Assembly (NCBI GenBank): GCA_938030745.1
Contig: CALHIP010000026.1
Span: forward strand, 16,404 to 80,403
Reading direction: 5' to 3'
Source of the DNA: an uncultured Patescibacteria group bacterium
GTDB lineage: Bacteria > Patescibacteriota > Patescibacteriia > UBA2591 > CALHIP01
DNA: 64,000 bases
Shown: positions 9,324-26,987 of the stretch, one piece after another
Layout of the letters: every line of letters starts with the position of its first letter
Numbering within the stretch: position 1 is the stretch's first letter
The notes under the pieces: generated by a model
The model's database searches: none
What the model was told of the DNA's origin: nothing
The model's input: only the letters and a program-made list of their open reading frames with translations
Made by a program: the position numbers and the translations under genes

Positions 9324-9761
9324 TCAACTTGTCTTGACTCTGAAAGGCTTTTCTACTCCTAATCTTTCTAAAATAAATAAATAGATCACTCGGGCTAAAA
9401 TAATGATAACTAAACCAAGAATTGCTTCTTTAATTAAATTTTTTGCTTTTTTAATCTGTTCTTCATTTGCTGAACCAGTTATCCATAAAAAGCCACCATA
9501 AATAATAATAATAATAAAAATAACACCAATAAAAGTTAAAAGATAGTTAATAATTTTAACAATTGTCATTATTGGATCTGTCTCTGTTGGAAGCTCTGGC
9601 ATTTCTTTAGTTACCTCTCCCCAGACTTTTTTTAAAAGATTTAAAGTTCGTTCTTCTACTGGTGTTTGAGCAAAACTTTGGGATAAAGATGAAAAAACAA
9701 AAAGAAGAAAAATCAGCCAAAAAAGAATTATTTTAAATTTTTTAAAGGCAGTAATTTTCAT
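9324..9761 (-). CDS. Pilin-like secreted protein with two-TM core (TrbC/VirB2-like T4SS-pilin family), paralog A
   Basis: Signal peptide MKITAFKKFKIILFWLIFLLFVFSSLSQSFA. Core IINYLLTFIGVIFIIIIIYGGFLWITGSANEEQIKKAKN plus a second TM helix. Confidence 0.55.
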   Translation of the reverse strand: MKITAFKKFKIILFWLIFLLFVFSSLSQSFAQTPVEERTLNLLKKVWGEVTKEMPELPTETDPIMTIVKIINYLLTFIGVIFIIIIIYGGFLWITGSANEEQIKKAKNLIKEAILGLVIIILARVIYLFILERLGVEKPFRVKTS

Positions 9762-9766
9762 ATTTT

Positions 9767-10183
9767 TTATTTAGGCTGGAAAGAAGCAAGGCCGTGTAGT
9801 CGGCTAATTACAAAAGCAGTAATTGTATAGGCAAAAAGAATAACAAGTAAACCAACAAGAGCATAAGTCAAAGTTTTTTTTGCTTTTCCAACTTTTTCTT
9901 CATTACCACCAGCGGTCATCCAAAGGTAACCACTGTAAATAATCATACAAACTGCTATCACTCCTAAAAAAGATAAAAGATATTGAATAATATTAAAAAC
10001 AATTTCAAGAATATCTCCTTTTTCAAGAATTGGTGTTCCTTCAATTAATTCAGATTCATAATCTGATGGTGAGGGAGGTTCTTCTTGAGCTAATAAAATT
10101 TGATTCGGCAAGAAAAAAAATAATAAGAAAATAATAAAACTTTTAAGGAAGATTGATTTCCTCTTATTATTTTTTTTAATCAT
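9767..10183 (-). CDS. Pilin-like protein, paralog B
   Basis: Signal peptide. Core IIQYLLSFLGVIAVCMIIYSGYLWMTAGGNEEKVGKAKK plus a second TM helix. Confidence 0.55.
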   Translation of the reverse strand: MIKKNNKRKSIFLKSFIIFLLFFFLPNQILLAQEEPPSPSDYESELIEGTPILEKGDILEIVFNIIQYLLSFLGVIAVCMIIYSGYLWMTAGGNEEKVGKAKKTLTYALVGLLVILFAYTITAFVISRLHGLASFQPK

Positions 10184-10269
10184 TTTTATATAGAGAAAGA
10201 GTCAGAATTTTCTTTAAAGAAAATCTAAAACTTTTTCCTTGCTTCTTTCTTCAATTTTAAAATCAGAAA

Positions 10270-10632
10270 TTAGGCAAAAGCTCTCAATTGACTGATGACG
10301 AATGAAGCAAGAGCAAAGGCAAGTAAAACAACAATTAAACCAATTAAACCTTGAATTAGGACTTTTTTTGCTTTTCCAACTTTTTCTTCATTACCACCAG
10401 CAGTCATCCACATAAATCCACCAATAATAATCACTACTAAAGCAACTACACCTAAAAAGGCAAGAACATACTGGATAGCAGTAAAGATAATTTTAATTAG
10501 ATCGGCGTTTTTTAAGACTGGCGTCGGTGCAACAAGATTGTTCATCCATTCTTCCCAATTATTAACTTGAGCAAAAACTATAGCTGGTAGAACTAAAAGA
10601 GTTAAGCTTAAAGGTAAAATTAATTTTTTCAT
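10270..10632 (-). CDS. Pilin-like protein, paralog C
   Basis: Signal peptide MKKLILPLSLTLLVLPAIVFA. Core AIQYVLAFLGVVALVVIIIGGFMWMTAGGNEEKVGKAKK. GGAGGG RBS upstream. Confidence 0.55.
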   Translation of the reverse strand: MKKLILPLSLTLLVLPAIVFAQVNNWEEWMNNLVAPTPVLKNADLIKIIFTAIQYVLAFLGVVALVVIIIGGFMWMTAGGNEEKVGKAKKVLIQGLIGLIVVLLAFALASFVISQLRAFA

Positions 10633-10750
10633 ATTTTTTCTTTTTTACTTAACCCTCCAACACACTTAAATATTCATTTACTCGACCTTTTATTATTTTT
10701 ATTATTCATCTTTAAAAATAAAAAGTCAAGAAAGGTTATCCACAAGTTAA

Positions 10751-11104
10751 TTATTTCGGCTGTTCGATAAATTTTTTAATAATGAAAGTCACTAATGAAT
10801 AGGAGAAAAAGACAATGGCTAAACCAAGAGTTGCCCAAACTAATGTATTTTTTCCTTTTTTGACTTGTTCAACGTTGCCACCAGAAGTCATCCAGAGAAT
10901 ACCACCATAAATAAACATAATTAAAGCTAAAACACCAACAATGCCTAAAACAAGTTTAATCGCATTGGCAATGATTTGATACATCTCAAGATTGCCAAGG
11001 GGAGAAGGAAGTTCTTCTTGGGCAAAAATAGGTCTAATAAAATTAAAAAGTAAAAAGTAAAAAGTAAAAATGGTAAGAATAATTATTTTTTTAGAAAGAG
11101 ACAT
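10751..11104 (-). CDS. Pilin-like protein, paralog D (start trimmed to the Met of signal peptide MSLSKKIIILTIFTFYFLLFNFIRPIFA)
   Basis: The listed ORF 10751..11212 overlaps the upstream paralog by about 100 nt. The internal ATG at 11102-11104 gives a canonical signal peptide and a 10-nt intergenic gap. Core YGGILWMTSGGNVEQVKKGKN. Confidence 0.5.
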   Translation of the reverse strand: MSLSKKIIILTIFTFYFLLFNFIRPIFAQEELPSPLGNLEMYQIIANAIKLVLGIVGVLALIMFIYGGILWMTSGGNVEQVKKGKNTLVWATLGLAIVFFSYSLVTFIIKKFIEQPK

Positions 11105-11114
11105 AAATTTAAAA

Positions 11115-11567
11115 CTATTCTGATTTTTTTTCTTCGGTAGTAGGAAAAACATACCATTTTTTAGAGCCGAAAATCTCACAGGACTGAAGAATCTGACCTT
11201 TTGAAAGACCACAAATAATTATATTGACAATATACCAGGAAAGAAAAACAATCATCAAGCCAAATAAAGTACCAATTAAAATTTGTTTTCCTCTTTTCAC
11301 TCTTAAAGGGTTTCCGCCTGAAGTTATCCAGATTATACCACCAACAATGAAAAAGATCAAAGCAAGAACTCCAATTATTCCTAAAAGAAAAAGAGAAACA
11401 CCTCTAGCTAATCTTAAAAAATCAATTAATTGACAATTGCCTTCTTCCCGACACTCCAAACTTACTTCCTTAAGGATATACCATTCAGCAGCGGAAACAG
11501 ATCTAAGAAATAAAAGAGGAAAAATAATCAATAATAAACCAGCGATTAATAAATTCTTTTTTTTCAT
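11115..11567 (-). CDS. Pilin-like protein, paralog E (Cys-containing N-terminal ectodomain)
   Basis: Signal peptide MKKKNLLIAGLLLIIFPLLFLRSVSA. Core LGIIGVLALIFFIVGGIIWITSGGNPLRVKRGKQ plus a second TM helix. Confidence 0.5.
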   Translation of the reverse strand: MKKKNLLIAGLLLIIFPLLFLRSVSAAEWYILKEVSLECREEGNCQLIDFLRLARGVSLFLLGIIGVLALIFFIVGGIIWITSGGNPLRVKRGKQILIGTLFGLMIVFLSWYIVNIIICGLSKGQILQSCEIFGSKKWYVFPTTEEKKSE

Positions 11568-12967: not shown

Positions 12968-13828
12968 TTATAATTTTAAAATTTTTTTAAGATCTTTTTG
13001 AATTTCTGGATGTTTTAATCCTATTTCAATATTTGCTTTTAGCCAACCAATTTTATTTCCGCAGGAAAGCCATTCCCCTTGATATTGATAAGCATAAATT
13101 TCAATTCCTTTTTCTAATAAAATTTTTAAAGCGTCAGTTAAATAAATTTCTTGGCCTGGTTTTATTTTTTTTGATCTTAAATTTTCTAAAGGCTGAAAAA
13201 TTTCCGGAGTTAAAATATAGCGACCGGTAATCGCTAAATTTGATGGTGCTTGGGAAATTTTCGGTTTTTCAATTACATCTAAAACTTTAAAAATTCTTTT
13301 TTCTATTCTTTTTCCTTTTATTATACCATAAGAAGATACTTCTTTTTTTAAAACAGGATGAACAGCTAAAACAATTTTTTTATATTTTTGATAAACCTCT
13401 ATTAATTGTCTAAGACAAGGAATCTTACTTTCGATAACATCATCAGCAAAGAATAAAGCAAATGGTTCATTCTTAACTTTATTTTTTACACATAAGATAG
13501 CATCACCAATTCCTAAAGGTTTTTTTTGATAAAGATAGGTAATCTTTGAGATGTTTGTTTTTTCTATTTCTTTTAAAAGATCGAATTTTTTCCTTTTAAC
13601 TAAAATATATTCTAATTTTTTATTTTTTTTAAAATAATCTTTAATATTTTCTTTTTCTTTTGAAATAACCAAGATAATATTCTTGATTCCTGAATTAAAT
13701 ATCTCTTCAATTAAATATTGAAGAACTGGTTTATCAACTAAAGGAAGCATCTCTTTAGGAAACGCCTTAGTGATAGGTAAAAACCTTGTTCCTAAACCGG
13801 CTGCTAAAATAACAGCTTTTTTGATCAT
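12968..13828 (-). CDS. galU: UTP--glucose-1-phosphate uridylyltransferase
   Basis: KAVILAAGLGTRFLPITKAFPKEMLPLVDKPVLQY is the canonical GalU N-terminus. Confidence 0.85.
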   Translation of the reverse strand: MIKKAVILAAGLGTRFLPITKAFPKEMLPLVDKPVLQYLIEEIFNSGIKNIILVISKEKENIKDYFKKNKKLEYILVKRKKFDLLKEIEKTNISKITYLYQKKPLGIGDAILCVKNKVKNEPFALFFADDVIESKIPCLRQLIEVYQKYKKIVLAVHPVLKKEVSSYGIIKGKRIEKRIFKVLDVIEKPKISQAPSNLAITGRYILTPEIFQPLENLRSKKIKPGQEIYLTDALKILLEKGIEIYAYQYQGEWLSCGNKIGWLKANIEIGLKHPEIQKDLKKILKL

Positions 13829-16485
13829 AATCTTTTTTCAACTCTTATTTTACCTCCTTTTTCTAAAATAACAAGATCCCGCCGAGAGATTTTGCCAGTT
13901 AAAAGATAGTTAGCAATCGCATCATTAACTTTTTCCTGAATAACCCTTTTTAATTCTCTAGCGCCAAAAACAGGATCAAACCCTTCTTGAGCTAGTTCAT
14001 CAATTGCCTCTTCAGTAACTAAAAGATTAATTCCTTTTGTTTCAAGTGTCTTTGCTAATTTACTAAGAAGAAGTCTGGTAATCTCTTTTAACTCGTTTAT
14101 TCCTAAAGATTTAAAAATAATTATTCCATCAAAACGATTTAAAAATTCAGGTTTAAAATATGGTAAGAGTTTTTCCTTAATAAAAACTTCTTTAATTTCA
14201 TCAATTGTTTTGCCTTGGCGAAGTTGTTCTTGAAGCCAATCAGAGGCAGCATTTGAAGTCCCAATTAAAATTAAATTGGTAAAATCAACTGTTCTACCTT
14301 GCCAATCAGTTAGTCGACCATCATCCATCACTTGTAAGAAAAGATTTAAAACATCTGGATGAGCTTTTTCAATTTCATCTAAAAGTAAAAGAGTAAAAGG
14401 GGTTTTTCTGACTGCCTCAGTTAGAACTCCTCTTGGCTCAGTTGAACAACCAATTAGTCGACCAATTGATTCTTTTGTCTGAAATTCACTCATATCCAAT
14501 CTAATCATTTTTTTCTCAGAACCAAAATAAATATCAGCAACTGTTTTTGCTAGTTCTGTTTTACCAACACCGGTAGGACCTAAAAATAAAAGATTGACAA
14601 TTGGTCTTTTTAATTCTCTTAATTCTGTCCTTGCTCTTCTGATAGCTGTTGCTACTGCTTTAACTGCTTCTTCTTGATCAATAATTCGTTGATGAATTTT
14701 TGCTTCTAATTCTAAAAGTATCTCTCTTTCTTCTCGACTAATTTTCTCGGGTGGAATGCCTGTCTTTTTTGCCACCAATTCAGCAACATCATCTTTTAAA
14801 ACAAATGAGTTTTTCCCTTTTTTATTTTTAACATAAATAGCTACTTCTTCAAGTAAAGAAATTGCTTTATCTGGTAAAAACTTCTCAGCTAAATATCTTA
14901 AAGAAAGTTCAACGGCATTAACTAAACTTTGATAAGAAAAGAAAACTTTGTTTTTTGCTTCTAAAAGGGCGACTTTTGCCATACAGATTAAAACTGCTGT
15001 ATTTTTATCCGGCTCGTTAACTGAAACTTTAGCTAATTTTTGACCTAAAGCTGAATCTTCTAAATATCTTTCATAAGAACCAGAAATTGAGCTAGCTAGG
15101 ACCAAACAATATCCTTTCTCAATAGCTTCAGCTAAAATTTCAGAAGCATCTAATTCACCTTCAGTTGTTTTTATTCCAACTAAATTATGAACATCTTTGA
15201 TAAACAAAACAATATTGCCAGCCTTAATAATTTCAAAAATAATTCTTTGAATCCTTTCTTCAATTTCACCTGGCCTTTCCGCACCAGCAACTAAACGACT
15301 GATGCTTAAACTAACTAATCTTTTATCAGATAAAATTGATGGTACCTCTTCAGCAACCATTTTTCTAGCTAAACCTTCAATAATAGTTGTTTTCCCAACG
15401 CCTGGTGGGCCAACTAAAACTATTCCTCTTTTTCCACCTTCTAACAATCTAAAAATTTCTTCAAATTCTTTTTCTCGATCAAGACAAACACCTAGATACC
15501 CTCTTTTTGCTAACTCAGTTAAATCAGAAGAAAAACTATCTAAAAATGGCGTTTGAACAGCAGTCATAGCAATGTTCATTGGTCCTTTTCTTTTTATCGC
15601 TGCTCCAGATAAAACCATTTGCCAATCTTTTCTTATTTCTTCATAAACTTCTTTCCAGACAATAACATTTTTTAAATCTTCAGGTTTTACTTCAAAATCA
15701 TCAAAAATGATTTTTGTTGGTTCATAATCAGAAGAAAGAAAAGGAAAAACTTCAAGAGGAGAGATAAGATCCTTTTTCTTTTTATATGCCTCTATTCCTG
15801 CTTTGATCAATATTTTTTTAGTCTCCAAAGAAAAACTCACTTTTCTTTTTTCTTTATAAAAATTAATTTTTGCTAAGAATTGTGAGATTTTTTCTTTCAT
15901 TTTAAACCAGGGAATTCCTAAACGAGTTAAAATAATCATTCCTTCTTCTTGTTGAAGAAGACCGACAAAAAGATGGATTGGTTCTATTTTGAAATGGTTT
16001 AGTTTTTTCGCTAAAAGAAAACTTTGGGAAATTGCTCGATCTAAAGATTTTGTTAAAAAATCATTAAGATTAATTTTTTCTTTTTTTAAAAAATATTGGC
16101 TAAGCAATTTCTTTTCTTTTTCTTGATCTTTAAGATAAATAAGGAAAAGCCAGGCTAATAAAGAAAGCCAAAAGATAAAGATTAATGAATCTTGATTAAT
16201 ATTTATAAAAATTGAGAAATTAATTTTAGCTTTTGGGATCAAAACTTGAGAAAGACAAATCAATCCGAAAAGGCCAAAAAGAATAAGAAAAATTTTAAAG
16301 AGAATTTTAAAGATTTTTTTTATTTTCTCAATTATAAACAAAAAAGTTGAAATTTCTCGGTCGAAAAAAATGGTTTTATCTAAAAAAGAAAACCAAACAC
16401 CTGTTCCTAAACAAACTGGACAAATTTTTCCTTCTTTTTCTCCTTCGCCCAAACAGACTGAGCAAAGATTTAATTCTTCGTTCAT
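13825..16485 (-). CDS. ClpC/ClpB-family double AAA+ ATPase with N-terminal DnaJ-type zinc ribbon and two TM helices
   Basis: CSVCLGEGEKEGKICPVCLGTG is two CxxCxGxG repeats. Two TM helices and one Clp_N-like repeat follow. Walker A sites are GPPGVGKT and GPTGVGKT, with the sensor region DEIEKAHPDVLNLFLQVMDDGRLTD. Confidence 0.8.
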   Translation of the reverse strand: MNEELNLCSVCLGEGEKEGKICPVCLGTGVWFSFLDKTIFFDREISTFLFIIEKIKKIFKILFKIFLILFGLFGLICLSQVLIPKAKINFSIFININQDSLIFIFWLSLLAWLFLIYLKDQEKEKKLLSQYFLKKEKINLNDFLTKSLDRAISQSFLLAKKLNHFKIEPIHLFVGLLQQEEGMIILTRLGIPWFKMKEKISQFLAKINFYKEKRKVSFSLETKKILIKAGIEAYKKKKDLISPLEVFPFLSSDYEPTKIIFDDFEVKPEDLKNVIVWKEVYEEIRKDWQMVLSGAAIKRKGPMNIAMTAVQTPFLDSFSSDLTELAKRGYLGVCLDREKEFEEIFRLLEGGKRGIVLVGPPGVGKTTIIEGLARKMVAEEVPSILSDKRLVSLSISRLVAGAERPGEIEERIQRIIFEIIKAGNIVLFIKDVHNLVGIKTTEGELDASEILAEAIEKGYCLVLASSISGSYERYLEDSALGQKLAKVSVNEPDKNTAVLICMAKVALLEAKNKVFFSYQSLVNAVELSLRYLAEKFLPDKAISLLEEVAIYVKNKKGKNSFVLKDDVAELVAKKTGIPPEKISREEREILLELEAKIHQRIIDQEEAVKAVATAIRRARTELRELKRPIVNLLFLGPTGVGKTELAKTVADIYFGSEKKMIRLDMSEFQTKESIGRLIGCSTEPRGVLTEAVRKTPFTLLLLDEIEKAHPDVLNLFLQVMDDGRLTDWQGRTVDFTNLILIGTSNAASDWLQEQLRQGKTIDEIKEVFIKEKLLPYFKPEFLNRFDGIIIFKSLGINELKEITRLLLSKLAKTLETKGINLLVTEEAIDELAQEGFDPVFGARELKRVIQEKVNDAIANYLLTGKISRRDLVILEKGGKIRVEKRL

Positions 16486-16868
16486 ATGATTGGATAAATT
16501 AAGAAATAATGGCAGAAATTAAATAAATAGCAAATAATTTTATAAAAAATCAATGGTAAGAGAATAAGATAGAAAATAAAAATAATCAGGCAGATAAAAG
16601 AAGCAAGAATAATTTTGAAAATATAAAAAGAAAGGTGGATGACTCTCATAAAAAAACTAATGATCCGACCTTCTCTTGAATAATCGCCATACATTGGTTT
16701 GAAAAGATTGGCAATTAAAATTTTTAAAACAATTGGATTTGAAATTTCAAGGATTGTTCTTCTCAAGAAATTGAAAAATTTGACTAATCCTTTAGAATAC
16801 CACCATAATGGAAAATAAAGAATGAGGACTAAAGGTTCTAAAATAAAAGTTTTAAAAATAATATCCAT
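16482..16868 (-). CDS. Small polytopic membrane protein, unknown function
   Basis: 128 aa with 3-4 hydrophobic helices. Translationally coupled between yidC and the clp-like gene (ATGA overlap). Confidence 0.4.
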   Translation of the reverse strand: MDIIFKTFILEPLVLILYFPLWWYSKGLVKFFNFLRRTILEISNPIVLKILIANLFKPMYGDYSREGRIISFFMRVIHLSFYIFKIILASFICLIIFIFYLILLPLIFYKIICYLFNFCHYFLIYPII

Positions 16869-16870
16869 AT

Positions 16871-17584
16871 TTACTGTCTTTTAAAGAGAAAAGTTTGTTG
16901 AAAGATGGTTAAAATTAAATTGACTAACCAATAAAGAACTAAACCACTTGGTAAACCTAAGCTAATAACAAATGTAAAAATAGGCATCATTACCTTCATT
17001 TGTTTATTAAGAACTCCCATCACTGACTCATTTTCCTTTCTTTTTTCTTTTGGCATCTTGACTAATGATCTTTTTGTTTCAAACATTTTTATTTGAAAAT
17101 ATTGAAAAAGGCCAGTTAATAAAGCTAAAGAAAAATTTTTTTCAGCTAAATTAAACAATCCAAAAGCAACTAAATTAAGTTGTCCTGGGTTTTTTATAAA
17201 TGGATAAAGAGGTAAAGTTTGACTAAAAAGACCAGTTCTGAAAACTTGATAGACAGCAATAAGAATTGGTAATTGGATGATTAAAAAGAAGAAGGGAGAG
17301 AATGGATTAATTTTATAAGTTTTATAAAGCTGAATTGTTTCCTGAGCAAGTTTTACTTTATCATAAGAAAATTTTTTCTTGATTTCTTCTAATTTCGGTT
17401 GAAGTTCGGCTAAAGATTTTTGAACTCTAATTTGTGAAAGAGATAAAGGATATAAAATTAGTTTAACAAAGATTGTTAAGAAAATAATTGATAAACCTAA
17501 ATCATAAAAACCAATAGTTTGATAGAAAAAGATTAAAAGATTTAAAAGAGGTTGATAAAAAATGAGGTTAAAAATTTTAATCAT
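16871..17584 (-). CDS. yidC: Membrane protein insertase YidC (short, Gram-positive-type)
   Basis: YQTIGFYDLGLSIIFLTIFVKLILYPLS, an amphipathic helix, and C-terminal LPSGLVLYWLVNLILTIFQQ. Confidence 0.8.
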   Translation of the reverse strand: MIKIFNLIFYQPLLNLLIFFYQTIGFYDLGLSIIFLTIFVKLILYPLSLSQIRVQKSLAELQPKLEEIKKKFSYDKVKLAQETIQLYKTYKINPFSPFFFLIIQLPILIAVYQVFRTGLFSQTLPLYPFIKNPGQLNLVAFGLFNLAEKNFSLALLTGLFQYFQIKMFETKRSLVKMPKEKRKENESVMGVLNKQMKVMMPIFTFVISLGLPSGLVLYWLVNLILTIFQQTFLFKRQ

Positions 17585-20496
17585 AATAAAATTACTGAAG
17601 CAACTTTGTCTTTTTTATCTTTAAGTTTAATTAATTTAACGCCCTGAGAAACACGACCTAAAATTGGAATGCTTTTTAAAGAAATTCTTAAAATTTGTCC
17701 TAAAAGAGAAGCAATAATTAAATCACCTTTTAAAAATTCGGAAAAATTTTTTTCATCAACAAAGAATAATTTAACCAATTTTCCTGTTTTTTCTGTCAAA
17801 CGATGGATTTTAATACCAGAGCCACCCCTTTTTTGAGAACGGTAAAAAGAAAGAGGAGAAAGTTTGCCATAACCAAATTCAGTAATTGAAAAAATTTTTG
17901 CCTCAACGGATTTTTTCTTAGGTAAAACTTCTAAAGCTATTAATTCATCATCTTGGCTTAATTTTATTCCCCTTAAACCTTTTGCTTCTCTTGAAAGTTT
18001 TCTAATTTCTTTTTCTGAAAATCTAATACCTTGACCATTTCGACTAACAAGGATTATTTCATCTTCGCCGGTTGAAGGTTTAACTGAAATAAGAGAATCA
18101 TCTTTTTCCAAACCAATAACTACTAAACCACTTTTTCTTATTTTCTTCAAGTTTTCTATCTCTATTCTTTTAACCATTCCCTTTTTTGTTGCAATGATTA
18201 AAAATTTTTGTGATAATTCTGAAGAGAAATAATTTTTTGACGAAACAGCTAAAACCGATGTAATCTTTTCATCTGAATTAAGAGAGAAGAAATTGGCTAT
18301 CGCCTCACCTTTTGAGGTTTTACTTTTCTCAGGAATTTCATAAGTTTTTAATTTAAAAACTTTGCCAGAATTAGTAAAAAATAAAATTTCAGAAAGGGTT
18401 GAGGTAAAAATAAGATGAGATAAAAGATGGTTTTCTTTTGTCTTTAAAATAATTGTTCCTTTTCCTCCTCTTTCTTGAACGCGGAACTGTTCTGGCGAAA
18501 CTCTTTTGAGATAGCTGTCTTGAGTTATAACAACTATTGTTGGTTTATCAGAAATAAAATCTTCTTCTTTAAATTCTTCAACTACTGTTTTAACAATTTT
18601 TGTCCTTCTTTCATCACCATATTTCTTTTTTAACTCTATAAGATCTTCTTTAATTAAATCAAGAATTTTCTTTGGCTGAGCTAAAATCAGACTTAAATTT
18701 TCTTTTTTCTTTTTTAATTCTTCAAGTTCATCCTTAATCTTTTGCCTTTCTAATTTAGAAAGTTGCCAAAGTCTTAATTCTAAAATCGCATTGGTTTGAC
18801 TTTCAGTTAAATTTAGTTTTTCAATTAAACTAATTTTTGCTTTTTCTTTATCTTTTGATTCTTTAATAATCTTTATTACTAAAGAAAGATTAGCTAAAGC
18901 TTTTTTAAAACCTTCTAAAACATGAATTCTTTTAATAACCTTATCAAGTTCCCATTCGGTTCTTCTTTTAATAACATTCTGCCGATGGTTTATATATTCT
19001 TTTAAAATATCTTTAAGGGAAAGTGTCTTTACTTCTAAACCTTCAACGAGAGCTAAAAAATTAAAATAAAAAGATGTCTCAAGTGGAGTAAAATTAAAAA
19101 GATAGTTAAGAACCTTCTCTGGATGAGCCTCTTTTTTTAAATCAATAACAATCCTTATTCCTTCTTTATCAGAAAGATCGCGAATATTTTTAATTTCTAA
19201 GATTTTTTTCTCTTCAATTAGTTGGGCAATTTTTTCAAGAATAGTTCTTTTTTCTACTAAATAAGGAATTTCTTTAATAATAATTTGATTTATTGAATCT
19301 TTTTTGAAAATTTCAGTCTTTGCTCTAATTACTATTTTGCCTCGACCAGAACTATATAAATCTTTAAGAATTTGGCCTCCAAAAACTATTCCACCAGTTG
19401 GGAAATCTGGACCTAAAATGAAATTCATTAATTCCGAAATTTCTGCTTCTGGATGATCAATTAAATAAATCAAAGCATCACAGATCTCAGAAAGATTATG
19501 AGGAGGAATATTTGTTGCTACTCCAACAGCAATACCTGAAACACCATTTAATAAAAGAAGAGGAATTCTTGCTGGTAAAACAACTGGCTCTTTTCTTGTT
19601 CCATCATAATTAGGAATAAAATCAATTGTATTTTTCTCAATATCTTTCAACATTTCTTCACCAATTTCTGAAAGTCTAGCTTCTGTATAACGATAGGCAG
19701 CCGGTTTATCTCCATCAATTGAATTATGAACAAAAACTCCAGCTGATAAAGCAAAATTGTGCCATGGTTCAGTAGTTAAATCATAAACATCTTCTTTTTT
19801 AAAAAGAACTTTTGTTTTCGTTACTTTTTTTGTTGAAAAACCCATTAAAGAATCGCCAGGCTTTAAATCTTTAGCCTGTTTATAACTACCATCTTCAAGC
19901 ATAAAAAGATGATCTAATGTAGATTTAATCTTTTCTTTATTATCTAAAATAATTTCTATTATTCTTTCATTTTTTCGCGTCAATCTTGGATTTTTGATTT
20001 CAGAAATTTCAATTTTTTTAGTTTTATGATTAAAAGTGAATGTCTGATATTTTTTCCCTTTTTTATATTCTTCAATCAATTCTTTAAAACTTAAATCTCT
20101 TCCATCAGAAATTTTTACTTTTGTATCTTTTGTAAAACAACCGAAATTTCCTTGACCTTCAATTAATGGATATCTTAAAGAAAAATCTTGGGCCATTCTA
20201 GCTAAAGCATCATAAACTGCCATATCACCATGTGGATGATAACGAGCTAAAACAGAACCAATAATGGAAGCTGATTTTCTAAATTTAGCATTATGATGAA
20301 GCCCATCTTCAAAAGCAGCATATAAAATCCGACGCTGAACTGGTTTTAAACCATCTCTGACATCAGGCAAAGCTCTTGAAACAATAACACTCATTGCATA
20401 ATCTAAATATGAATCTTGCATCTCTTCACCAATAGCTCTTTCTTCTATTTTTTCTTTAATTCGCGATTTTGTTTCATTATTTTTTTTATTCTTCAT
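17581..20496 (-). CDS. gyrA: DNA gyrase subunit A, interrupted in frame by a mini-intein
   Basis: RALPDVRDGLKPVQRRILY…HPHGD…GQGNFG / intein / SIDGDKPAAYRYTEARL, followed by the standard GyrA body and a beta-pinwheel C-terminal domain. Confidence 0.9.
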   Translation of the reverse strand: MKNKKNNETKSRIKEKIEERAIGEEMQDSYLDYAMSVIVSRALPDVRDGLKPVQRRILYAAFEDGLHHNAKFRKSASIIGSVLARYHPHGDMAVYDALARMAQDFSLRYPLIEGQGNFGCFTKDTKVKISDGRDLSFKELIEEYKKGKKYQTFTFNHKTKKIEISEIKNPRLTRKNERIIEIILDNKEKIKSTLDHLFMLEDGSYKQAKDLKPGDSLMGFSTKKVTKTKVLFKKEDVYDLTTEPWHNFALSAGVFVHNSIDGDKPAAYRYTEARLSEIGEEMLKDIEKNTIDFIPNYDGTRKEPVVLPARIPLLLLNGVSGIAVGVATNIPPHNLSEICDALIYLIDHPEAEISELMNFILGPDFPTGGIVFGGQILKDLYSSGRGKIVIRAKTEIFKKDSINQIIIKEIPYLVEKRTILEKIAQLIEEKKILEIKNIRDLSDKEGIRIVIDLKKEAHPEKVLNYLFNFTPLETSFYFNFLALVEGLEVKTLSLKDILKEYINHRQNVIKRRTEWELDKVIKRIHVLEGFKKALANLSLVIKIIKESKDKEKAKISLIEKLNLTESQTNAILELRLWQLSKLERQKIKDELEELKKKKENLSLILAQPKKILDLIKEDLIELKKKYGDERRTKIVKTVVEEFKEEDFISDKPTIVVITQDSYLKRVSPEQFRVQERGGKGTIILKTKENHLLSHLIFTSTLSEILFFTNSGKVFKLKTYEIPEKSKTSKGEAIANFFSLNSDEKITSVLAVSSKNYFSSELSQKFLIIATKKGMVKRIEIENLKKIRKSGLVVIGLEKDDSLISVKPSTGEDEIILVSRNGQGIRFSEKEIRKLSREAKGLRGIKLSQDDELIALEVLPKKKSVEAKIFSITEFGYGKLSPLSFYRSQKRGGSGIKIHRLTEKTGKLVKLFFVDEKNFSEFLKGDLIIASLLGQILRISLKSIPILGRVSQGVKLIKLKDKKDKVASVILL
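19723..20139 (-). mobile_element. Mini-intein (139 aa, Hint domain only, no homing-endonuclease domain) within gyrA
   Basis: Starts with Cys (CFTKDTKV, block A), has TLDH (block B TxxH), and ends VFVHN immediately followed by Ser+1. Removing it restores the contiguous GyrA sequence GNFG-SIDGD. Confidence 0.8.
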
Positions 20497-20815
20497 AAGA
20501 TTTATTTTCCTGATTAAGATATTCTAAAACTTTTTCTTTTAGTTTTTTAATCTCAGGGGGTACTTTCTCTTCTTTATTTTCAATTAAATTTAAATTAGAA
20601 ATTTTAAAACTTTTTATTTCTTGGAAGATGTTTTTAAACTCTTCTAAAAAACTTGAAGTTTCTTCTTCTAATTTTTTAGGCAGGACTTCTTGATATTTTT
20701 TTGTTTTAAATGTTAAGAATTTCAAATAAACTCGCCAAAGAATAAATAAAATTATAAAGGTAGTAATAACTAAGACCCAGAGGAAAGTTTTTTTTCTAAA
20801 CTCTTTTTCTTTCAT
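20486..20815 (-). CDS. Small N-terminally anchored membrane protein, unknown
   Basis: One TM helix (FLWVLVITTFIILFILW) plus a charged tail. Confidence 0.35.
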   Translation of the reverse strand: MKEKEFRKKTFLWVLVITTFIILFILWRVYLKFLTFKTKKYQEVLPKKLEEETSSFLEEFKNIFQEIKSFKISNLNLIENKEEKVPPEIKKLKEKVLEYLNQENKSYEE

Positions 20816-21412
20816 TTAAAGGTTTGGTTTTAAAATAACTAATTTCTTTTTTTCTTTTAAAATTTCATTCTTTTTAATTTTTAATTTCTCCAATTTTTCA
20901 ATTTTTTTTAAACTAAATTTTTTAAGAAATGGCAGAAGTTCGTTTTCTTCTTTTTTATAAACAGGGATAATAATTGATGGCTGAATTTTGTTAATCATTT
21001 TGATTGTTTGGTCAATTAAATTTTTATCGAAAAGAGGTAGGATAACAATATCAACTTCATAAAGTTTTTCTATTTCTTTATCAGTCAGATTTTTAAAAAC
21101 TTCTCCAAAAAAGCAAATTTTTATATTTTCTAAATTTAAAAGATAAATTGTTTTTAAATTCTTTCCCTCAAAATGGGGAATCCCATAAATAAAAATATTT
21201 TTTATCTCATATTCGCCAGGATTAGACAAAACAAGATGACCGGAAAAATCTTTTTTCTCTTTTATCTCTTCTTCAGAGGAGAAAATAACAATTTCTGAAG
21301 TAATTCTTGGATTTTTAAAACCTAAATCTTTTGGTGAAAACGGATTAGTAATAATTGTCACTCCAGAAGAAATTATTTTAAAACAAGTGTTAGCGTACCA
21401 AATAATCTGCAT
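20816..21412 (-). CDS. MBL-fold-like protein lacking the canonical metal-binding His motif
   Basis: MQIIWYANTCFKIISSGVTIITNPF parallels the MKITWLGHSCF…IDPF pattern of UPF0173-type MBL hydrolases. I see no HxHxDH. Confidence 0.35.
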   Translation of the reverse strand: MQIIWYANTCFKIISSGVTIITNPFSPKDLGFKNPRITSEIVIFSSEEEIKEKKDFSGHLVLSNPGEYEIKNIFIYGIPHFEGKNLKTIYLLNLENIKICFFGEVFKNLTDKEIEKLYEVDIVILPLFDKNLIDQTIKMINKIQPSIIIPVYKKEENELLPFLKKFSLKKIEKLEKLKIKKNEILKEKKKLVILKPNL

Positions 21413-21430
21413 AGCTTATCTTATCAGTTC

Positions 21431-21459
21431 TTTACTGTTTTGTCAAATTTTGATATAAT
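21431..21459 (+). promoter_or_regulatory. Extended -10 promoter (TTTACT, 17 nt, TGaTATAAT) 8 nt upstream of the S1-gene ATG
   Basis: TATAAT at 21454-21459 with TG at 21451-21452. No SD before the ATG at 21468, implying a leaderless or near-leaderless mRNA. Confidence 0.45.
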
Positions 21460-21467
21460 GAATAAAT

Positions 21468-22493
21468 ATGAAAAAAATAATAAAATCTGTGATGAATCAA
21501 TTCAAAGTTGGTAATATCGTCGAAGGAAGGGTTATAAAAATAAAAAAGAATGAAATTTGGGTTGATCTAGATGGAAAGGCAGTTGGAGTTATCAGAGGAC
21601 CTCAGATTGGAAATGAAAAAAAATTAGCTGTTGGAGATAAGATAATGGCAACAATTATTGAAGAAGAAAATGAACTTGGAGTATTAGAACTTTCGACAAA
21701 AGAAATTTCTGGTCTAAAAGTCTGGGAGGAACTCAAGAAAATTAAAGAAAACAAAGAGACAATTAAAGTAAAAGTTATTGAAGCAAATAAAGGAGGGTTA
21801 ATTGTTGAATATAAAAAACTTCAAGGGTTTATTCCTTCCTCTCAACTTGCTTCAGATCATTATCCACAAGTAGAAGATAAAAATAAAGATAAAATCTTAG
21901 ATCTTTTAAAAAGATTAATTGGTAAGGTTTTAGAGGTGAAGGTTCTTAGTCTTAATAAAAAAGATAAAAAAATAATCTTTTCAGAAAAAGAGACAGAACT
22001 TGAGAAAAGAAAAATATCGTTTAAGAAATATAAAGTTGGTGATATTGTTGAAGGAAGGGTTGTTGCTTTTTCTCCGTTTGGTGTCTTTTTTGAATTTAAT
22101 GACGGTCTTAAAGGATTAGTTCATATCTCAGAACTTTCTTGGCAAAAAGTTGAAAAAATAGAAGATGTTGTCAAAATAGGAGAAAAAAGAAAGGCGAAAA
22201 TACTTTCTTTTGATAATTCGAAGATTTCTCTTTCTTTTAAAAGATTAACGCCAGATCCTTGGCAAGAGATAGAGAAAAAATACAAGGTTGGAGAAACAGT
22301 TTTAGGAAAAATTTCAAAAATCACACCTTATGGAGTTTTTGTTGAACTAGATAAAAACATTCAAGGACTAGCTCATATTTCTGAAATACCCGAAGATCAG
22401 AAAAATGAAATAAAAGTTGGTAATTTTTTAAAATTTAAAATAATTTCTTTAGAACCTGAAGATCATCGTTTAGGTCTTTCATTAAAATTATGA
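21468..22493 (+). CDS. S1 RNA-binding domain protein (ribosomal protein S1-like, four S1 repeats)
   Basis: Repeated GxxVxGxV…G(L/V)xHISE motifs occur four times. Confidence 0.75.
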   Translation: MKKIIKSVMNQFKVGNIVEGRVIKIKKNEIWVDLDGKAVGVIRGPQIGNEKKLAVGDKIMATIIEEENELGVLELSTKEISGLKVWEELKKIKENKETIKVKVIEANKGGLIVEYKKLQGFIPSSQLASDHYPQVEDKNKDKILDLLKRLIGKVLEVKVLSLNKKDKKIIFSEKETELEKRKISFKKYKVGDIVEGRVVAFSPFGVFFEFNDGLKGLVHISELSWQKVEKIEDVVKIGEKRKAKILSFDNSKISLSFKRLTPDPWQEIEKKYKVGETVLGKISKITPYGVFVELDKNIQGLAHISEIPEDQKNEIKVGNFLKFKIISLEPEDHRLGLSLKL

Positions 22494-24301
22494 AAAACAT
22501 TATTATAAATTTTTTAGTTCTTCTAATTCTCTTTTTGATCATGGCTGGTTTTTTCAGTCTTTTTAATCTTCCGACAGAAAAAGCAAAGGAAATAGGAATC
22601 ACTGAATTTATTTCTTATTTAAAAAATAAAGAAATAAAAGAAATTTTTGTAGAAGAAAACAAGATAAACCTGATCACTAAAGAAGGAAAAAAGTTCTTCT
22701 TTTTTAAAGAAGAAAAAGAAACTCTCCAAAATCTTTTAAACTATTACAATGTCCCTCCAGAAATTACTGAGGAAGTTTCTATTTTTGTTAAACCGGTAGC
22801 AAAACAAAACATTTTCCTTCAAGTTATTGTCCCAGTTATTCTTCCCCTACTTTTAATAATTGGCTTTATTTATCTTTTTACCAGACAACTTAGGGGTGGA
22901 GCTCAAGAAGCATTTAGATTTGGTGAATCAAAAGCTCGAGAAATTAGGCCAGGAGAAAAACCAAGAGTTACTTTTAAAGATGTTGCTGGAGTTAAAGAAG
23001 CAAAAGAAGAATTAAAAGAAATTGTTGAATTTTTAAAAAATCCAAAAAAATTTACTGCCTTAGGAGCAAAAATTCCAAAAGGAGTCTTACTTTTAGGAAT
23101 GCCAGGAACAGGAAAAACACTTTTAGCTCGAGCAGTAGCTGGTGAAGCAAATGTTCCTTTTTTCCATATTTCAGGTTCAGAGTTTGTTGAAATGTTTGTT
23201 GGTGTTGGCGCAAGTCGTGTTCGTGACCTTTTTCAGAGAGCAAAAAAAAATTTACCATGTATTGTTTTTATTGATGAACTTGATGCAGTCGGTAGAATGC
23301 GGGGAGCTGGTTTGGGTGGTGGCCATGATGAAAGAGAACAGACTTTAAACCAGATTTTAGTTGAAATGGATGGGTTTGAACCAAATATTGGATTAGTAGT
23401 CATGGCTGCTTCGAATCGACCAGATATTTTAGATCCAGCTTTACTTCGACCTGGCCGTTTTGATCGAAGAATTATTTTAGATATGCCTGATGTAAAAGAT
23501 AGAGAAGAGATTTTAAAAATTCATAGCCGGGGAAAACCATTAGCAAAAAATGTTTCTTTGAGAAAAATTGCTGAAAGAACGCCTGGTTTTTCTGGAGCTG
23601 ATTTAGCTAATTTAATGAATGAAGCAGCGATTCTCGCTGCCAGACGAGGAAAAAGCAAAATCTATGAAAAAGAGATTTTAGAATCAATTGAGAAAGTTCT
23701 TTTAGGTCCAGAAAGAAAATCTCATATTCTTTCAGAAAAAGAAAGAAAGGTTATTGCTTATCACGAAGCTGGTCATGCTTTAGTTGCCCATTTCTTACCT
23801 CATTGTGATCCTGTTCAAAAAGTATCTATTATTCCAAGAGGGCTAGCAGCTGGCTATACAATTAAGATGCCGGAAAAAGAAAGATATTTAAAATTTAAGT
23901 CTGAATTTTTAGATAATTTAACTTCAACTTTGGGTGGCTATGCAGCTGAGGAAGAAATCTTTGGTGAAATCACAACTGGTGCAGCTAATGACTTAAAATT
24001 AGCAACAGAGATGGCAAAAAAACTTGTCACTGAATTTGGAATGAGTGAAGTTTTAGGACCAAGAACATTTGGTGAAAGACATGAGTTAATATTTTTAGGT
24101 AGGGAGATTGCTGAACAAAGAGATTATTCAGAAAAGACTGCAGAGTTTATTGACCAGGAGATTTCAAAATTTATTAATTCTTGCTATCAAAAAGCAAAAG
24201 AAATTATTAAAAGCAAAAGAGAATATTTAGAGAAAATTGCTCAAAAACTTTTGGAAAAAGAGACATTAGAAAGAGATGAATTTTTAAAAATTTTCAATTA
24301 A
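22490..24301 (+). CDS. ftsH: ATP-dependent zinc metalloprotease FtsH
   Basis: An N-terminal TM pair, the AAA motif [23 protein letters not shown], the SRH region, and the zinc site HEAGHAL. Confidence 0.95.
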
Positions 24302-24303
24302 TT

Positions 24304-25152
24304 ATGACTAGTAATATTCTTAAGAAATCTTTCCAAATCATTTGGCATCATCCAATTCTTTGGTTTTTTGGTTTCCTTTCAACATTTTTTTTCTTTTCTT
24401 TAAATGAAATCTTTATAATTTTCTCTTCCTCATATTTTTTCTCAGAGTTAGAAAAAACAAAGGTCTTCTTTCTTCCGGAGGGTCAATTTAAAAATCTTGG
24501 CTCTTTTTTATTAATAATTATTTTTTTAGGTATTTTCTTATCTATTTTTTTAGCTATTTTTTCAGAAATTTTTCTAATTTTATCTGTTAAAAAGATAAAA
24601 GAAGAGAAAGATGAAAGTTTAGCTAAAAAATCTTTTAATTTTTTGCCCAAGGTTTTATTTTTAAAGATCATTTTAGTTTTATTTTTCCTTCTTTTTTGGA
24701 TAGGTTTTAATTTCTTTAAATATCTTCCTGATGTTTTTTTGTTTCTTTTTGTTTTTATTTTTTCTTTATTTGGCTTAATTTTGTTTTTTATTATTCGCTA
24801 TTCAATTTTTTATTTATTAATAGAAAAAAATAATTTGTTAAAATCTATAAAAAATGGTTTTCTCTTTTTAGGAAAGAATTTAATGTTGACTTTTAAATTA
24901 TCAATTCTTCTTTTTTTAATCTCTTCTATTTATAGTTTTGTAATGTTATCTTTTTTAGGGGGTGGTGTATTTTCTTATCCTCTTCGAATTTTTAATTTTA
25001 TTTTTAGCAATCTTCTTGGCAAATATGGTTTTTGGTTGGTTGCTCTTTTAACAGTTTTCTTTGTTTTAATTTTACAGATTGTTATTATTGGTTTAATTAA
25101 TTCTTATCAAATTGTTTGTTGGACTTATTTATTTTTGAAAAAACGTGAATAA
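24304..25152 (+). CDS. Polytopic membrane protein, unknown
   Basis: 282 aa with 6-7 hydrophobic helices. Confidence 0.4.
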   Translation: MTSNILKKSFQIIWHHPILWFFGFLSTFFFFSLNEIFIIFSSSYFFSELEKTKVFFLPEGQFKNLGSFLLIIIFLGIFLSIFLAIFSEIFLILSVKKIKEEKDESLAKKSFNFLPKVLFLKIILVLFFLLFWIGFNFFKYLPDVFLFLFVFIFSLFGLILFFIIRYSIFYLLIEKNNLLKSIKNGFLFLGKNLMLTFKLSILLFLISSIYSFVMLSFLGGGVFSYPLRIFNFIFSNLLGKYGFWLVALLTVFFVLILQIVIIGLINSYQIVCWTYLFLKKRE

Positions 25153-25288
25153 CTTATTTTTTTAAAGAACTTTTCCACATCTTTTTCCACTGTTTTTAAA
25201 TTAAAAAAATTGATAAAATAAATAAAGAAAAAGTTTTCAACAAAATTAAAGGAGTTATTATTACTACTTATTTTAAAAGTTATTATCT

Positions 25289-26392: not shown

Positions 26393-26411
26393 TTTGATAT
26401 AATAAAATAAT

Positions 26412-26987
26412 ATGTATCTTGTCCCAACAGTTATTGAAAAATCTCCTTTTGGTGAAAGGGCTTATGATATTTATTCTCGGCTTTTAAAAGAAAGAATCAT
26501 CTTTTTAGGCGATGTTATTACTGATGCAGTAGCTAATACAGTTATCGCCCAACTTTTATTTTTAGAATCTGAAGATAAAACAAAAGATATTAAACTTTAT
26601 ATTAATACACCGGGAGGTTCAGTAACAGCTGGATTAGCAATCTATGATACAATGCAATATGTTAAACCCGATGTAGTGACAATTTGTGTTGGTTTGGCAG
26701 CAAGTATGGGTGCTGTGTTGTTAGCTGGCGGAGCAAAAGGAAAAAGATTTGCCTTACCAAATTCTGAAATAATGCTTCATCAAGTTATGGGTGGTGCTGA
26801 AGGACCAGCTATTGATATAAAAATTAGAGCTACACATATCTTAAGAGTTAGAGATAGGATCAATAAAATTCTTTCCTACCATACAAATCAACCATTAAAA
26901 AAGATTGAACAGGATACAGATCGTGAATTTTTTATGACTGCTGAAGAAGCAAAAAATTATGGAATTATTGACGAGATCATAAAATAA
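26412..26987 (+). CDS. clpP: ATP-dependent Clp protease proteolytic subunit
   Basis: [19 protein letters not shown]…[14 protein letters not shown] (catalytic Ser)…MLHQ. Confidence 0.95.

Follow-up and report, generated by a model that had tools for sequence, protein, structure and literature searches.

What might a Clp-type ATPase do if it were built into a membrane? The question is raised by a gene in a stretch of 64,000 nucleotides (here called the window; contig CALHIP010000026.1, positions 16,404 to 80,403) that comes from an uncultured Patescibacteria group bacterium and has a G+C content of about 28%. In the encoded protein, a zinc ribbon and two predicted transmembrane (TM) helices precede the body of a Clp/Hsp100 ATPase, and a small gene for an orphan membrane protein lies directly upstream. 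We read the protein as a Clp/Hsp100 double-ring ATPase that has become membrane-integral within one lineage, with relatives across the Parcubacteria group of Patescibacteria. The two genes are the following.

13825-16485, minus strand: gene for the membrane-anchored Clp/Hsp100-like ATPase; 886 amino acids, ATG start, about 110 full-length homologues
16482-16868, minus strand: partner gene for a 128-amino-acid orphan membrane protein, between yidC and the ATPase gene

The ATPase and its family

The ATPase gene is on the minus strand, which corrects the reading made earlier from the letters of the window alone (the sequence-only reading). By Pfam, the protein belongs to the Clp/Hsp100 class-I double-ring AAA+ superfamily, with all four domains above their cut-offs: Clp_N at residues 158-200 (22.6 bits against a cut-off of 20.7, one repeat detected), AAA_lid_9 at 495-568, AAA_2 at 627-786 (E 7e-51) and ClpB_D2-small at 796-870 (E 1.4e-21). 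A P-loop of the first AAA+ module (D1) is found near residue 355, and the presence of both AAA+ modules, D1 and D2, is upheld by Pfam and by the fold. The AlphaFold2 model, made with 91 homologues, has a mean pLDDT (predicted local distance difference test) of 86.5.

Among the best 113 homologues, 109 are full-length proteins of more than 860 residues, with identities of 39-69% and a coverage that is usually 99-100%. The closest is 69% identical over 100% of the protein, including the N-terminus. These 109 members are the family set used throughout, and they were compared by alignment with seven canonical ClpB- or ClpC-type sequences. The close relatives all come from metagenome-assembled genomes (MAGs) of Patescibacteria. 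For the N-terminal module, a single-sequence search with the first 140 residues returned one partial protein; a profile search was used instead and, against 1.84 billion representative proteins, gave 1060 matches at E<=1e-3 and 215 at E<=1e-10.

The ATG of the ATPase overlaps the TGA of the upstream 128-residue gene in the form ATGA, and the next methionine is residue 183. A wrong start or a chance motif is ruled out by this overlap, the invariant cysteines described below and the homologues with 100% coverage. In particular, the true start does not lie downstream of the TM segments, since the N-terminus is conserved at the protein level. The architecture described in the sequence-only reading (a DnaJ-type zinc ribbon, then a TM hairpin, then a Clp body) is conserved in about 100 full-length Patescibacteria homologues, and no characterised homologue with the same N-terminus was found, in keeping with the novelty that had been claimed for it.

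The N-terminal membrane module

The N-terminal module comprises four segments.

16366-16470, minus strand: zinc ribbon (residues 6-40), two CxxCxGxG knuckles and a beta-hairpin, of the type seen in anti-TRAP and in the cysteine-rich domain (CRD) of DnaJ
16237-16305, minus strand: TM helix 1 (residues 61-83), hydropathy 2.67 at residues 65-83, modelled as a helix at 47-82
16189-16236, minus strand: inter-TM loop (residues 84-99), predicted to be extracytoplasmic, pLDDT 65-70, of variable length across the family
16132-16188, minus strand: TM helix 2 (residues 100-118), hydropathy 2.40, modelled as a helix at 98-123, motif FW(L)S(L)LxDxYLxY

The knuckles, at residues 8-29, read C-SV-C-L-G-E-G ... 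C-PV-C-L-G-T-G, and C8, C11, G13, G15, C22 and C25 are invariant in an N-terminal alignment of 29 sequences. Two or more CxxC motifs occur within the first 90 residues in 94 of the 109 members, and AlphaFold2 places beta strands across residues 6-40. With the single sequence, the Pfam family DnaJ_CXXCXGXG reached only E 0.068, and this family and Clp_N were the sole ones at E<=10. The N-terminal profile matched, among proteins of the PDB, anti-TRAP (3lcz, E 2.8e-8; 2bx9, E 4.2e-7) and the zinc domain of Escherichia coli DnaJ (1exk, E 5.3e-7), which gives statistical support to the DnaJ-like zinc ribbon of the sequence-only reading. The segment can be assigned to the DnaJ-CRD/anti-TRAP zinc ribbons by its sequence, with a predicted Cys4 site. 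Its likeness to anti-TRAP and DnaJ is far beyond chance, and its closest solved relative is the single-zinc anti-TRAP fold.

The two TM helices that had been predicted are borne out by hydropathy and by the modelled helices. In Kyte-Doolittle plots of the ATPase, 19-residue windows exceed 1.6 only at about residues 55-86 and 98-120, where the peaks of 2.67 and 2.40 lie. At least one TM-like segment is present in the first 200 residues of all 109 members and of none of the seven canonical ClpB/ClpC proteins, and 68 of the 109 have two or more at the threshold of 1.6. The flanks of the hairpin are rich in lysine and arginine (3.7 and 4.3 per 15 residues). Because of these flanks, and because the ATPase needs cytosolic ATP, an N-in/C-in hairpin is predicted, with the zinc ribbon and the ATPase both in the cytoplasm. 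Hydropathy, modelled helices and flank charge thus agree in predicting an integral membrane protein with a two-TM hairpin. The loop between the helices is the least conserved segment (majority-residue frequency of 0.23) and TM helix 2 the most conserved part of the N-terminal module (0.58), with F105 and W106 nearly invariant and Y117 invariant. As a separate observation, residue 112 within this helix (window positions ~16150-16152) is aspartate in 43 of 79 paired loci and tryptophan in the window protein; leucine, asparagine, isoleucine or glycine is found in further members, with no detectable compensating change in the partner.

The N-domain and the two AAA+ modules

The remainder of the protein contains the following features, listed from the N-terminus.

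15595-16053, minus strand: Clp N-domain (residues 145-297), two repeats and eight helices, with AlphaFold2 helices at 146-297
14776-15543, minus strand: D1 AAA+ module (residues 315-570), P-loop kept, catalytic motifs lost
15388-15411, minus strand: D1 Walker A, GPPGVGKT, kept (GxPGVGKT in the family)
15253-15285, minus strand: D1 pore loop, GAERPGEIEER, with ERP in place of the canonical KYR (KYRGEFE)
15187-15210, minus strand: D1 Walker B, VLFIKDVH, with IKDVH in place of the canonical IDELH
15025-15057, minus strand: D1 arginine-finger site, ALGQKLA in place of the canonical ALERRFQ
14788-14850, minus strand: short linker at the site of the middle domain (M-domain) of ClpB/ClpC, from a comparison of segment lengths
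14116-14718, minus strand: D2 AAA+ module (residues 590-790), full catalytic set, degenerate pore loop
14557-14580, minus strand: D2 Walker A, GPTGVGKT, invariant
14413-14460, minus strand: D2 pore loop, RLIGCST-----EPRG, without GYVG
14362-14391, minus strand: D2 Walker B, LLLLDEIEKA, invariant
14200-14253, minus strand: site where the ClpP-docking (LGF/IGF) loop would be, loop absent
14128-14151, minus strand: D2 arginine finger, PEFLNRFD, invariant, as is sensor-1 TSN
13876-14100, minus strand: D2-small (lid) domain, sensor-2 GAR, with G841, A842 and R843 invariant

The sequence-only reading had counted a single Clp_N repeat, which turns out to be a matter of Pfam sensitivity only: the model contains a full eight-helix N-domain, and residues 7-415 of ClpC align with residues 145-565 of the ATPase, so that the ClpC N-domain begins opposite residue 145.

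The two AAA+ modules differ in what they have kept. In D1, the Asp-Glu dipeptide of Walker B is present in none of the 109 members (KD is found in 42, DN in 16, PN in 13 and other variants in the rest), and no member has an aromatic residue in the D1 pore loop. The Walker B Asp-Glu, arginine fingers and pore tyrosine of a competent D1, as in ClpC, ClpB and ClpA, are missing. Without the Walker B glutamate, the arginine fingers and the pore tyrosine, D1 is predicted to be catalytically dead in all 109 members. In D2, by contrast, Walker A, Walker B, sensor-1, the arginine finger and sensor-2 are invariant across 91 sequences, and this is the most conserved domain of the protein (0.78), which argues for selection on ATP hydrolysis. 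The exception is the D2 pore loop, canonically GAPPGYVG, which is five residues shorter in the window's clade (GCST-EPRG). A glycine followed by an aromatic residue (G[YFW]) is found in this loop in 35 of the 109 members, mostly the more distant ones.

Two further elements that connect Clp ATPases with their partners are also missing. A middle domain was looked for through segment lengths in the alignment, and there is none: the corresponding segment is a linker of 33 residues in 103 of the 109 members, against 92-93 residues in ClpC-type and 154-156 in ClpB-type references. Residues 415-461 of ClpC have no counterpart in the ATPase, and the Pfam family UVR is not among its 25 best matches. 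The ClpP-docking IGF/LGF loop, looked for in the same alignment, is likewise absent. The segment after D2 sensor-1 has a fixed length of 34 residues in all 109 members and of 40-42 residues, with LGF or MGF, in ClpC-type references, and a gap of seven residues stands opposite 'RFAGFGGS' of ClpC. The tripeptide [LIVM]G[FL] occurs in this segment in one of the 109, by chance. The loss of the loop in the other 108 supports the earlier view that a classic ClpCP role is unlikely. Taken together, these features of the body set the family apart as an Hsp100 subfamily of its own, in which D1 is a structural ring and only one ring is a motor.

A conserved small membrane protein encoded upstream

The strongest contextual signal is the conserved gene for a small membrane protein directly upstream of the ATPase. 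The ATPase gene had been described as lying next to yidC; in fact, the 128-residue open reading frame (ORF) lies between them. Six divergent ATPase homologues (39-68% identity; loci L001, L003, L005, L006, L007 and L009) have an ORF of 117-129 residues without a Pfam domain directly upstream, and these six ORFs are homologous to that of the window. The partner family has 2209 relatives at E<=1e-3; among the matches listed, all are unnamed Patescibacteria proteins of 106-145 residues without a Pfam domain. It is encoded in at least 579 GTDB species representatives.

To judge the pairing, 80 partner loci were kept, 76 of which had enough downstream sequence. In 72 of these 76 species-representative loci, the family ATPase is the next gene downstream on the same strand, at a spacing that is usually -7 to +40 nucleotides. 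Two of the four exceptions are Jacksonbacteria, and a Jacksonbacteria ATPase locus (L008) also has no small gene upstream. Many loci of the pair (L015, L020, L024 and others) are in MAG records titled 'uncultured Gammaproteobacteria bacterium', labels that look like placeholders or errors (binchicken, SRP co-assemblies).

Two motifs, FPxWWYxxG and PMYGxYxxxGRIISFFxR, are common to the partner family, as are some 40 hydrophobic residues towards the C-terminus, and the model of the window's protein consists of long helices (pLDDT 82). Pfam, NCBIfam and PADLOC gave no match for it, fold and sequence searches returned nothing discriminating, with no PDB match at E<=10, and the weak Pfam matches across 35 members of the partner family point to no consistent family. 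Scans for promoters and terminators around the operon found no more sites than in shuffled sequence.

Comparison with known Clp proteins and membrane ATPases

Structure and sequence searches place the body of the ATPase close to ClpC. The best sequence match in the PDB is Staphylococcus aureus ClpC (6em9, E 1.2e-137), and Foldseek gives target-normalised TM-scores (template modelling scores) of 0.85-0.88, with 41-43% identity over about 580 residues, to ClpC of S. aureus and Bacillus subtilis (6em9, 9gi1, 7abr); the score to a ClpB protomer is 0.86. Nevertheless, no NCBIfam equivalog cut-off is reached. The best match is ClpB (TIGR03346, 586.3 against 1232.1), followed by ClpA (TIGR02639, 493.4 against 993.15) and ClpV (TIGR03345, 453 against 884.95), and the scores for ClpK and ClpG are far below 1900.

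The ATPase shares with ClpC the two-repeat N-domain, the fold of the D1-D2 protomer and the D2 catalytic motifs. However, it lacks the short UVR-type coiled-coil M-domain (an insertion in the D1 small domain) and the ClpP loop that mark ClpC proteins, as well as the D1 catalytic residues and the D2 GYVG. Its zinc ribbon and TM hairpin are additions to the ClpC plan, and so is its dedicated partner, the small membrane protein. With ClpB and Hsp104 it has in common a double ring without a ClpP loop, and ClpB is its best NCBIfam family, but it has neither the long coiled-coil M-domain of about 120 residues (segment lengths of 33 against about 155 residues) nor a TIGR03346 score at the level of that class, its D1 is predicted to be inactive, its pore tyrosines are lost and it is membrane-anchored. 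M-domain length and the LGF loop have been used as criteria to separate ClpB from ClpC (PMC10149685), and by these the ATPase is neither. The same source defines, by bioinformatics, a class of Actinomycetota, ClpI, apart from both, with a subtype, ClpIb, that has no LGF; unlike the ATPase, ClpI has an M-domain like that of ClpC and has retained its motifs for ATPase activity and translocation, and no TM segment is mentioned for it (PMC10149685).

The remaining bacterial classes fit no better. ClpA resembles the ATPase in having no M-domain between D1 and D2, and the two give a single full-length alignment. However, the IGL/IGF loop for ClpP and the active D1 of ClpA are both absent here, so the protein is not a ClpA. 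In ClpE and ClpX, a Cys4 zinc module also stands N-terminal to a Clp ATPase; this zinc domain is a docking site for substrates or adaptors, and in ClpE it is combined with a ClpP loop and an M-domain. In contrast, the module of the ATPase is of the CxxCxGxG anti-TRAP/DnaJ-CRD type and is followed by a TM hairpin, and the ClpX-type C4 finger and ClpP loop that define ClpE are absent. Nor is the protein a ClpV/TssH, and no genes of a type VI secretion system occur among the neighbours that were examined. With anti-TRAP (RtpA) and the DnaJ CRD, the zinc module shares two CxxCxGxG knuckles followed by a beta strand; while anti-TRAP is a free regulator of 53 residues and the DnaJ CRD a two-zinc insertion in a J-protein, the module here would be a single-zinc unit set on a membrane hairpin and an Hsp100 body.

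Outside the Clp proteins, two systems are instructive. In FtsH, two N-terminal TM helices per protomer hold the AAA+ ring at the cytoplasmic face of the membrane, and the ATPase has the same number of TM helices in the same place; a genuine FtsH is encoded in the window at 22490-24301. FtsH differs in that it is built on a single classical-AAA ring to which an M41 protease is fused, and in that its periplasmic domain is folded. The ATPase has the double ring of Hsp100 proteins without a protease, and its outer loop is short and not conserved. In Pex1/Pex6, a type-II AAA+ ATPase that acts at a membrane, D1 is inactive and D2 active, and the small partner, Pex15 or Pex26, is anchored in the membrane. 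The likeness is a functional analogy only, as Pex1/Pex6 is eukaryotic, belongs to a different AAA+ clade and is itself soluble.

Two other candidate relatives were set aside. Dyads of an inactive AAA and an AAA protein associated with PspA/Snf7 are classical-AAA proteins from other phyla and no more than an analogy (PMC11237479). An anti-phage defence ATPase was considered through PADLOC, and the similarity is partial and at the level of D2 (DolB, 121 bits over residues 565-748); the housekeeping context of the pair in at least 579 species and the lack of a PADLOC match for the partner also speak against defence.

The wider gene neighbourhood

The genes that flank the pair in the window are as follows.

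12968-13828, minus strand: sugar-nucleotidyl transferase gene, overlapping the ATPase stop codon by 4 nucleotides (NTP_transferase, E 8.7e-36), with the same arrangement in L004 and L005
16871-17584, minus strand: yidC (Pfam 60KD_IMP, E 1.4e-42), given for context only

The sequence-only reading had used the proximity of yidC and of pilin genes as a functional argument. This context is local to the lineage (it recurs in L004 and L005) and does not extend to the family: only 7 of 68 species representatives have YidC encoded before the pair, and 9 of 62 have a pilin of the type IV secretion system (T4SS) type after it, so a conserved linkage to either was rejected. The clpP gene that had been placed about 10 kb away on the opposite strand was confirmed at 26412-26987 (plus strand). 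It is 3 kb from the pair in L001, and proximity to clpP is not part of the conserved neighbourhood. A search with the hidden Markov model of the family found no second Clp-type ATPase gene in the 64-kb window.

Across the family, the commonest further neighbour is a WecA-like Glycos_transf_4 gene (GT4). Of 71 loci, 19 have it as the adjacent gene and 24 have it no more than 3 kb downstream. The linked loci fall into at least 12 clusters at 55% identity. The window's clade contributes none of them and is one of three large sub-clades that lack the linkage. Other recurrent neighbours related to the envelope are MltG, PMT_2, DUF2142, Alr, Ddl, VanW, mraZ, rsmH, ftsL and the sugar-nucleotidyl transferase. 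Overall, the neighbourhood of the pair suggests envelope biogenesis.

In L003, L007, L092 and others, an extended gene order is seen: (mraZ-rsmH-ftsL-like)-tgt-small protein-ATPase-WecA-like GT4-(DUF192)-rplU-recR-ybaB. Some members of the family thus have the pair at the margin of a cluster of the division and cell-wall type.

Short and fused forms

Besides full-length forms, the search with the N-terminal profile returned fragments and two other architectures. One is a coherent family of shorter proteins, about 590-630 residues long, that has the zinc ribbon, the TM hairpin, the Clp N-domain and a single, more degenerate AAA domain, without D2 (P0289, P0291, P0292, P0300, P0314, P0318, P0323, P0345, P0358 and P0379). 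These proteins end after the D1 lid with the motif VPYTK(I/L)LK. Two of the loci (L090, 4808-6619; L091, 358-2169) show the GT4-L21-RecR synteny of the long forms, and no small partner gene is found upstream of the short form in either. In one MAG, the long-form ATPase is fused in frame to Glycos_transf_4 (L092, 3001-6696; P0298, 1231 residues). This fusion comes from a single contig and may be real, or it may be an artefact of assembly or a frameshift. The short and fused variants show that the half of the protein made up of zinc ribbon, TM hairpin, N-domain and pseudo-D1 can persist without the motor.

Proposed mechanism and alternatives

The reading that we favour over processive threading, and to which we give an even chance, is a ClpP-independent, D2-driven, membrane-bound remodelling complex that includes the small partner. 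The ATPase would form a hexamer similar to those of ClpC and ClpB, with its N-terminal face on the cytoplasmic side of the membrane, where 12 TM helices would hold it in an FtsH-like geometry. Of the two rings, D1 would serve for assembly and be stabilised by nucleotide, and D2 alone would be the motor, a division of labour like that of Pex1/Pex6. The zinc ribbon and the N-domain would bind clients or partners, as the zinc domains of ClpX, ClpE and DnaJ do, and the small membrane protein would be a stoichiometric partner, be it a subunit, an adaptor or a (regulated) client. In this way, the complex would serve as a membrane-proximal, ATP-driven factor for the remodelling or assembly of membrane or envelope-biogenesis proteins, independent of ClpP and of coupling of the DnaK type. 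Because both pore loops are without tyrosines or other aromatic residues in the window's clade, short-range remodelling or a non-canonical grip is probable there, and not processive threading in the manner of ClpB or ClpC.

A more specific version of this idea is possible, although we regard it as doubtful: a two-component, membrane-embedded Hsp100 machine, with a dead D1 as scaffold and D2 as a motor that does not thread by tyrosines, that through its zinc ribbons, N-domains and small subunit assembles, regulates or recycles polytopic enzymes of envelope synthesis, such as the WecA-like phosphoglycosyl transferase. Such a non-proteolytic, non-threading action, if true, is not known for any Clp/Hsp100 protein.

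Several observations weigh against the remodelling complex or parts of it. The short form without D2 occurs in the same synteny, so that the conserved core function may need no motor. About a third of the members (35 of 109) keep a D2 pore loop of the GY type, so that threading of substrates may persist in ancestral or deep members. TM helix 2 is under the simple hydropathy threshold in 41 of the 109, and most members have a conserved aspartate inside it. A link to envelope genes is absent from the window's own clade, with the exception of the nucleotidyl transferase. When mutual-information covariation between the partner and the N-terminal half of the ATPase was computed from 79 pairs, the top-scoring positions were scattered and outlined no coherent interface. 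Finally, the hexamer, the topology, the binding of zinc and the binding of the partner are all features that we infer.

Among the alternatives, the one closest to the sequence-only reading is a membrane-protein dislocase or quality-control unfoldase that, like FtsH, Msp1 or Cdc48, threads proteins out of the bilayer through its pore, here without a protease of its own. The membrane anchor would put the entry face of D1 at the membrane, the catalytic residues of D2 are invariant, the 35 members with a GY[AES]G-type D2 loop would fit threading in the deep branches, and genes for YidC, FtsH and pilins are nearby in the window. The window's clade, however, has no aromatic pore-1 residue in either ring and has a D2 loop shortened by five residues, D1 appears dead in all members, the short forms have no D2, the adjacency of YidC and pilins is not conserved and no protease partner is found that would receive extracted proteins. 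We thus consider a dislocase unlikely. Of the role that the sequence-only reading had proposed, in membrane-protein quality control or in the extraction and assembly of envelope proteins, the assembly part is retained in the remodelling complex, and the unfoldase or extraction part is weakened by the dead D1 without a pore tyrosine in all members, by the deletion of the D2 GYVG in the clade and by the short form without D2. The opposite extreme is a pseudo-enzyme that is mainly a scaffold or regulator, a membrane-anchored ring that organises or regulates envelope-glycan enzymes such as the WecA-like GT4 and in which D2 is only a nucleotide-dependent switch. The family-wide degeneration of D1 is what such a protein would show, as are a family of about 600 residues that ends after the D1 lid, with a more degenerate AAA domain in the same GT4-L21-RecR synteny, the directly adjacent GT4 in 19 of 71 loci and the ATPase-GT4 fusion of one MAG. 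Yet in the long form no part is more strongly conserved than D2, in which every catalytic residue is invariant; the fusion, seen on a single contig, could be a sequencing artefact; and three large sub-clades, that of the window among them, show no GT4 linkage. A pure scaffold is, in our view, quite improbable.

Conventional Clp functions fare worse against the same evidence. A ClpB-like disaggregase that is merely tethered to the membrane and cooperates with DnaK and DnaJ would account for the missing ClpP loop, for ClpB as the best NCBIfam family (586 bits) and for a DnaJ-type zinc motif that recalls the Hsp70 system. Nevertheless, the M-domain that couples ClpB to DnaK is absent (33 against 154-156 residues), the ClpB model scores less than half its cut-off (586 against 1232), D1 is predicted to be dead and the pore tyrosines are lost, all of which makes this explanation very improbable. 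An ordinary ClpC- or ClpE-type partner of the nearby ClpP, with an N-terminal extension, is hardly credible: although clpP is 10 kb away (3 kb in L001), the closest solved structures are of ClpC and the automatic annotation of the Joint Genome Institute reads 'ClpC', the LGF/IGF loop is missing in 108 of the 109 members, there is no UVR or M-domain, the models for ClpA, ClpB, ClpK, ClpG and ClpV all stay under their cut-offs and the proximity of clpP is not conserved.

Significance

A literature search found no published description of the ATPase family, and none of the curated NCBIfam models covers it; the names used in public records are generic ('AAA family ATPase', 'ClpC'). The ATPase is a derivative of Hsp100 and so is not categorically new. 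On the other hand, no described precedent was found for its membrane integration, anti-TRAP-type zinc head, dead D1 and loss of pore tyrosines, for its lack of both ClpP and Hsp70 interfaces, or for its orphan membrane partner. As far as we know, every Clp/Hsp100 ATPase that has been characterised is a soluble protein that relies on aromatic pore loops and works with ClpP or Hsp70, and no counter-example to this rule was found in the literature search. The family described here, which at least 579 species-level genomes from a major uncultivated radiation encode, departs from each of these points. With the pore tyrosine lost from D1 in every member and from D2 in about two thirds, including the window's clade, the family is a natural experiment on how an Hsp100 ring functions without threading. 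For Patescibacteria, about whose cell biology almost nothing is known, it also offers a handle on membrane or envelope proteostasis, and it corrects a systematic mis-annotation, in which homologues are named 'ClpC' or 'ATP-dependent Clp protease ATP-binding subunit'. The ATPase and its partner are small enough for heterologous expression, so these predictions can be tested without cultivation.

Other features of the window

From 20486 to 26987, the window contains an origin-proximal housekeeping region with genes for a Lactamase_B_3 protein and a protein with four S1 domains, ftsH (22490-24301), dnaN (25289-26392), clpP and RNase Y; clpX does not lie next to clpP. A tandem array of five small membrane ORFs, of 120-153 residues, occupies 9324-11567 on the minus strand. 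All five match T4SS_pilin/TrbC and are pilins of the type IV secretion type, and the same array is present in L004 and L005. Finally, gyrA (17581-20496, minus strand, 971 residues) has its DNA_topoisoIV domain split by an intein, for which Pfam matches Intein_splicing at residues 135-218 and PT-HINT at 184-259, and the orthologue in L004, of 814 residues, has no intein.

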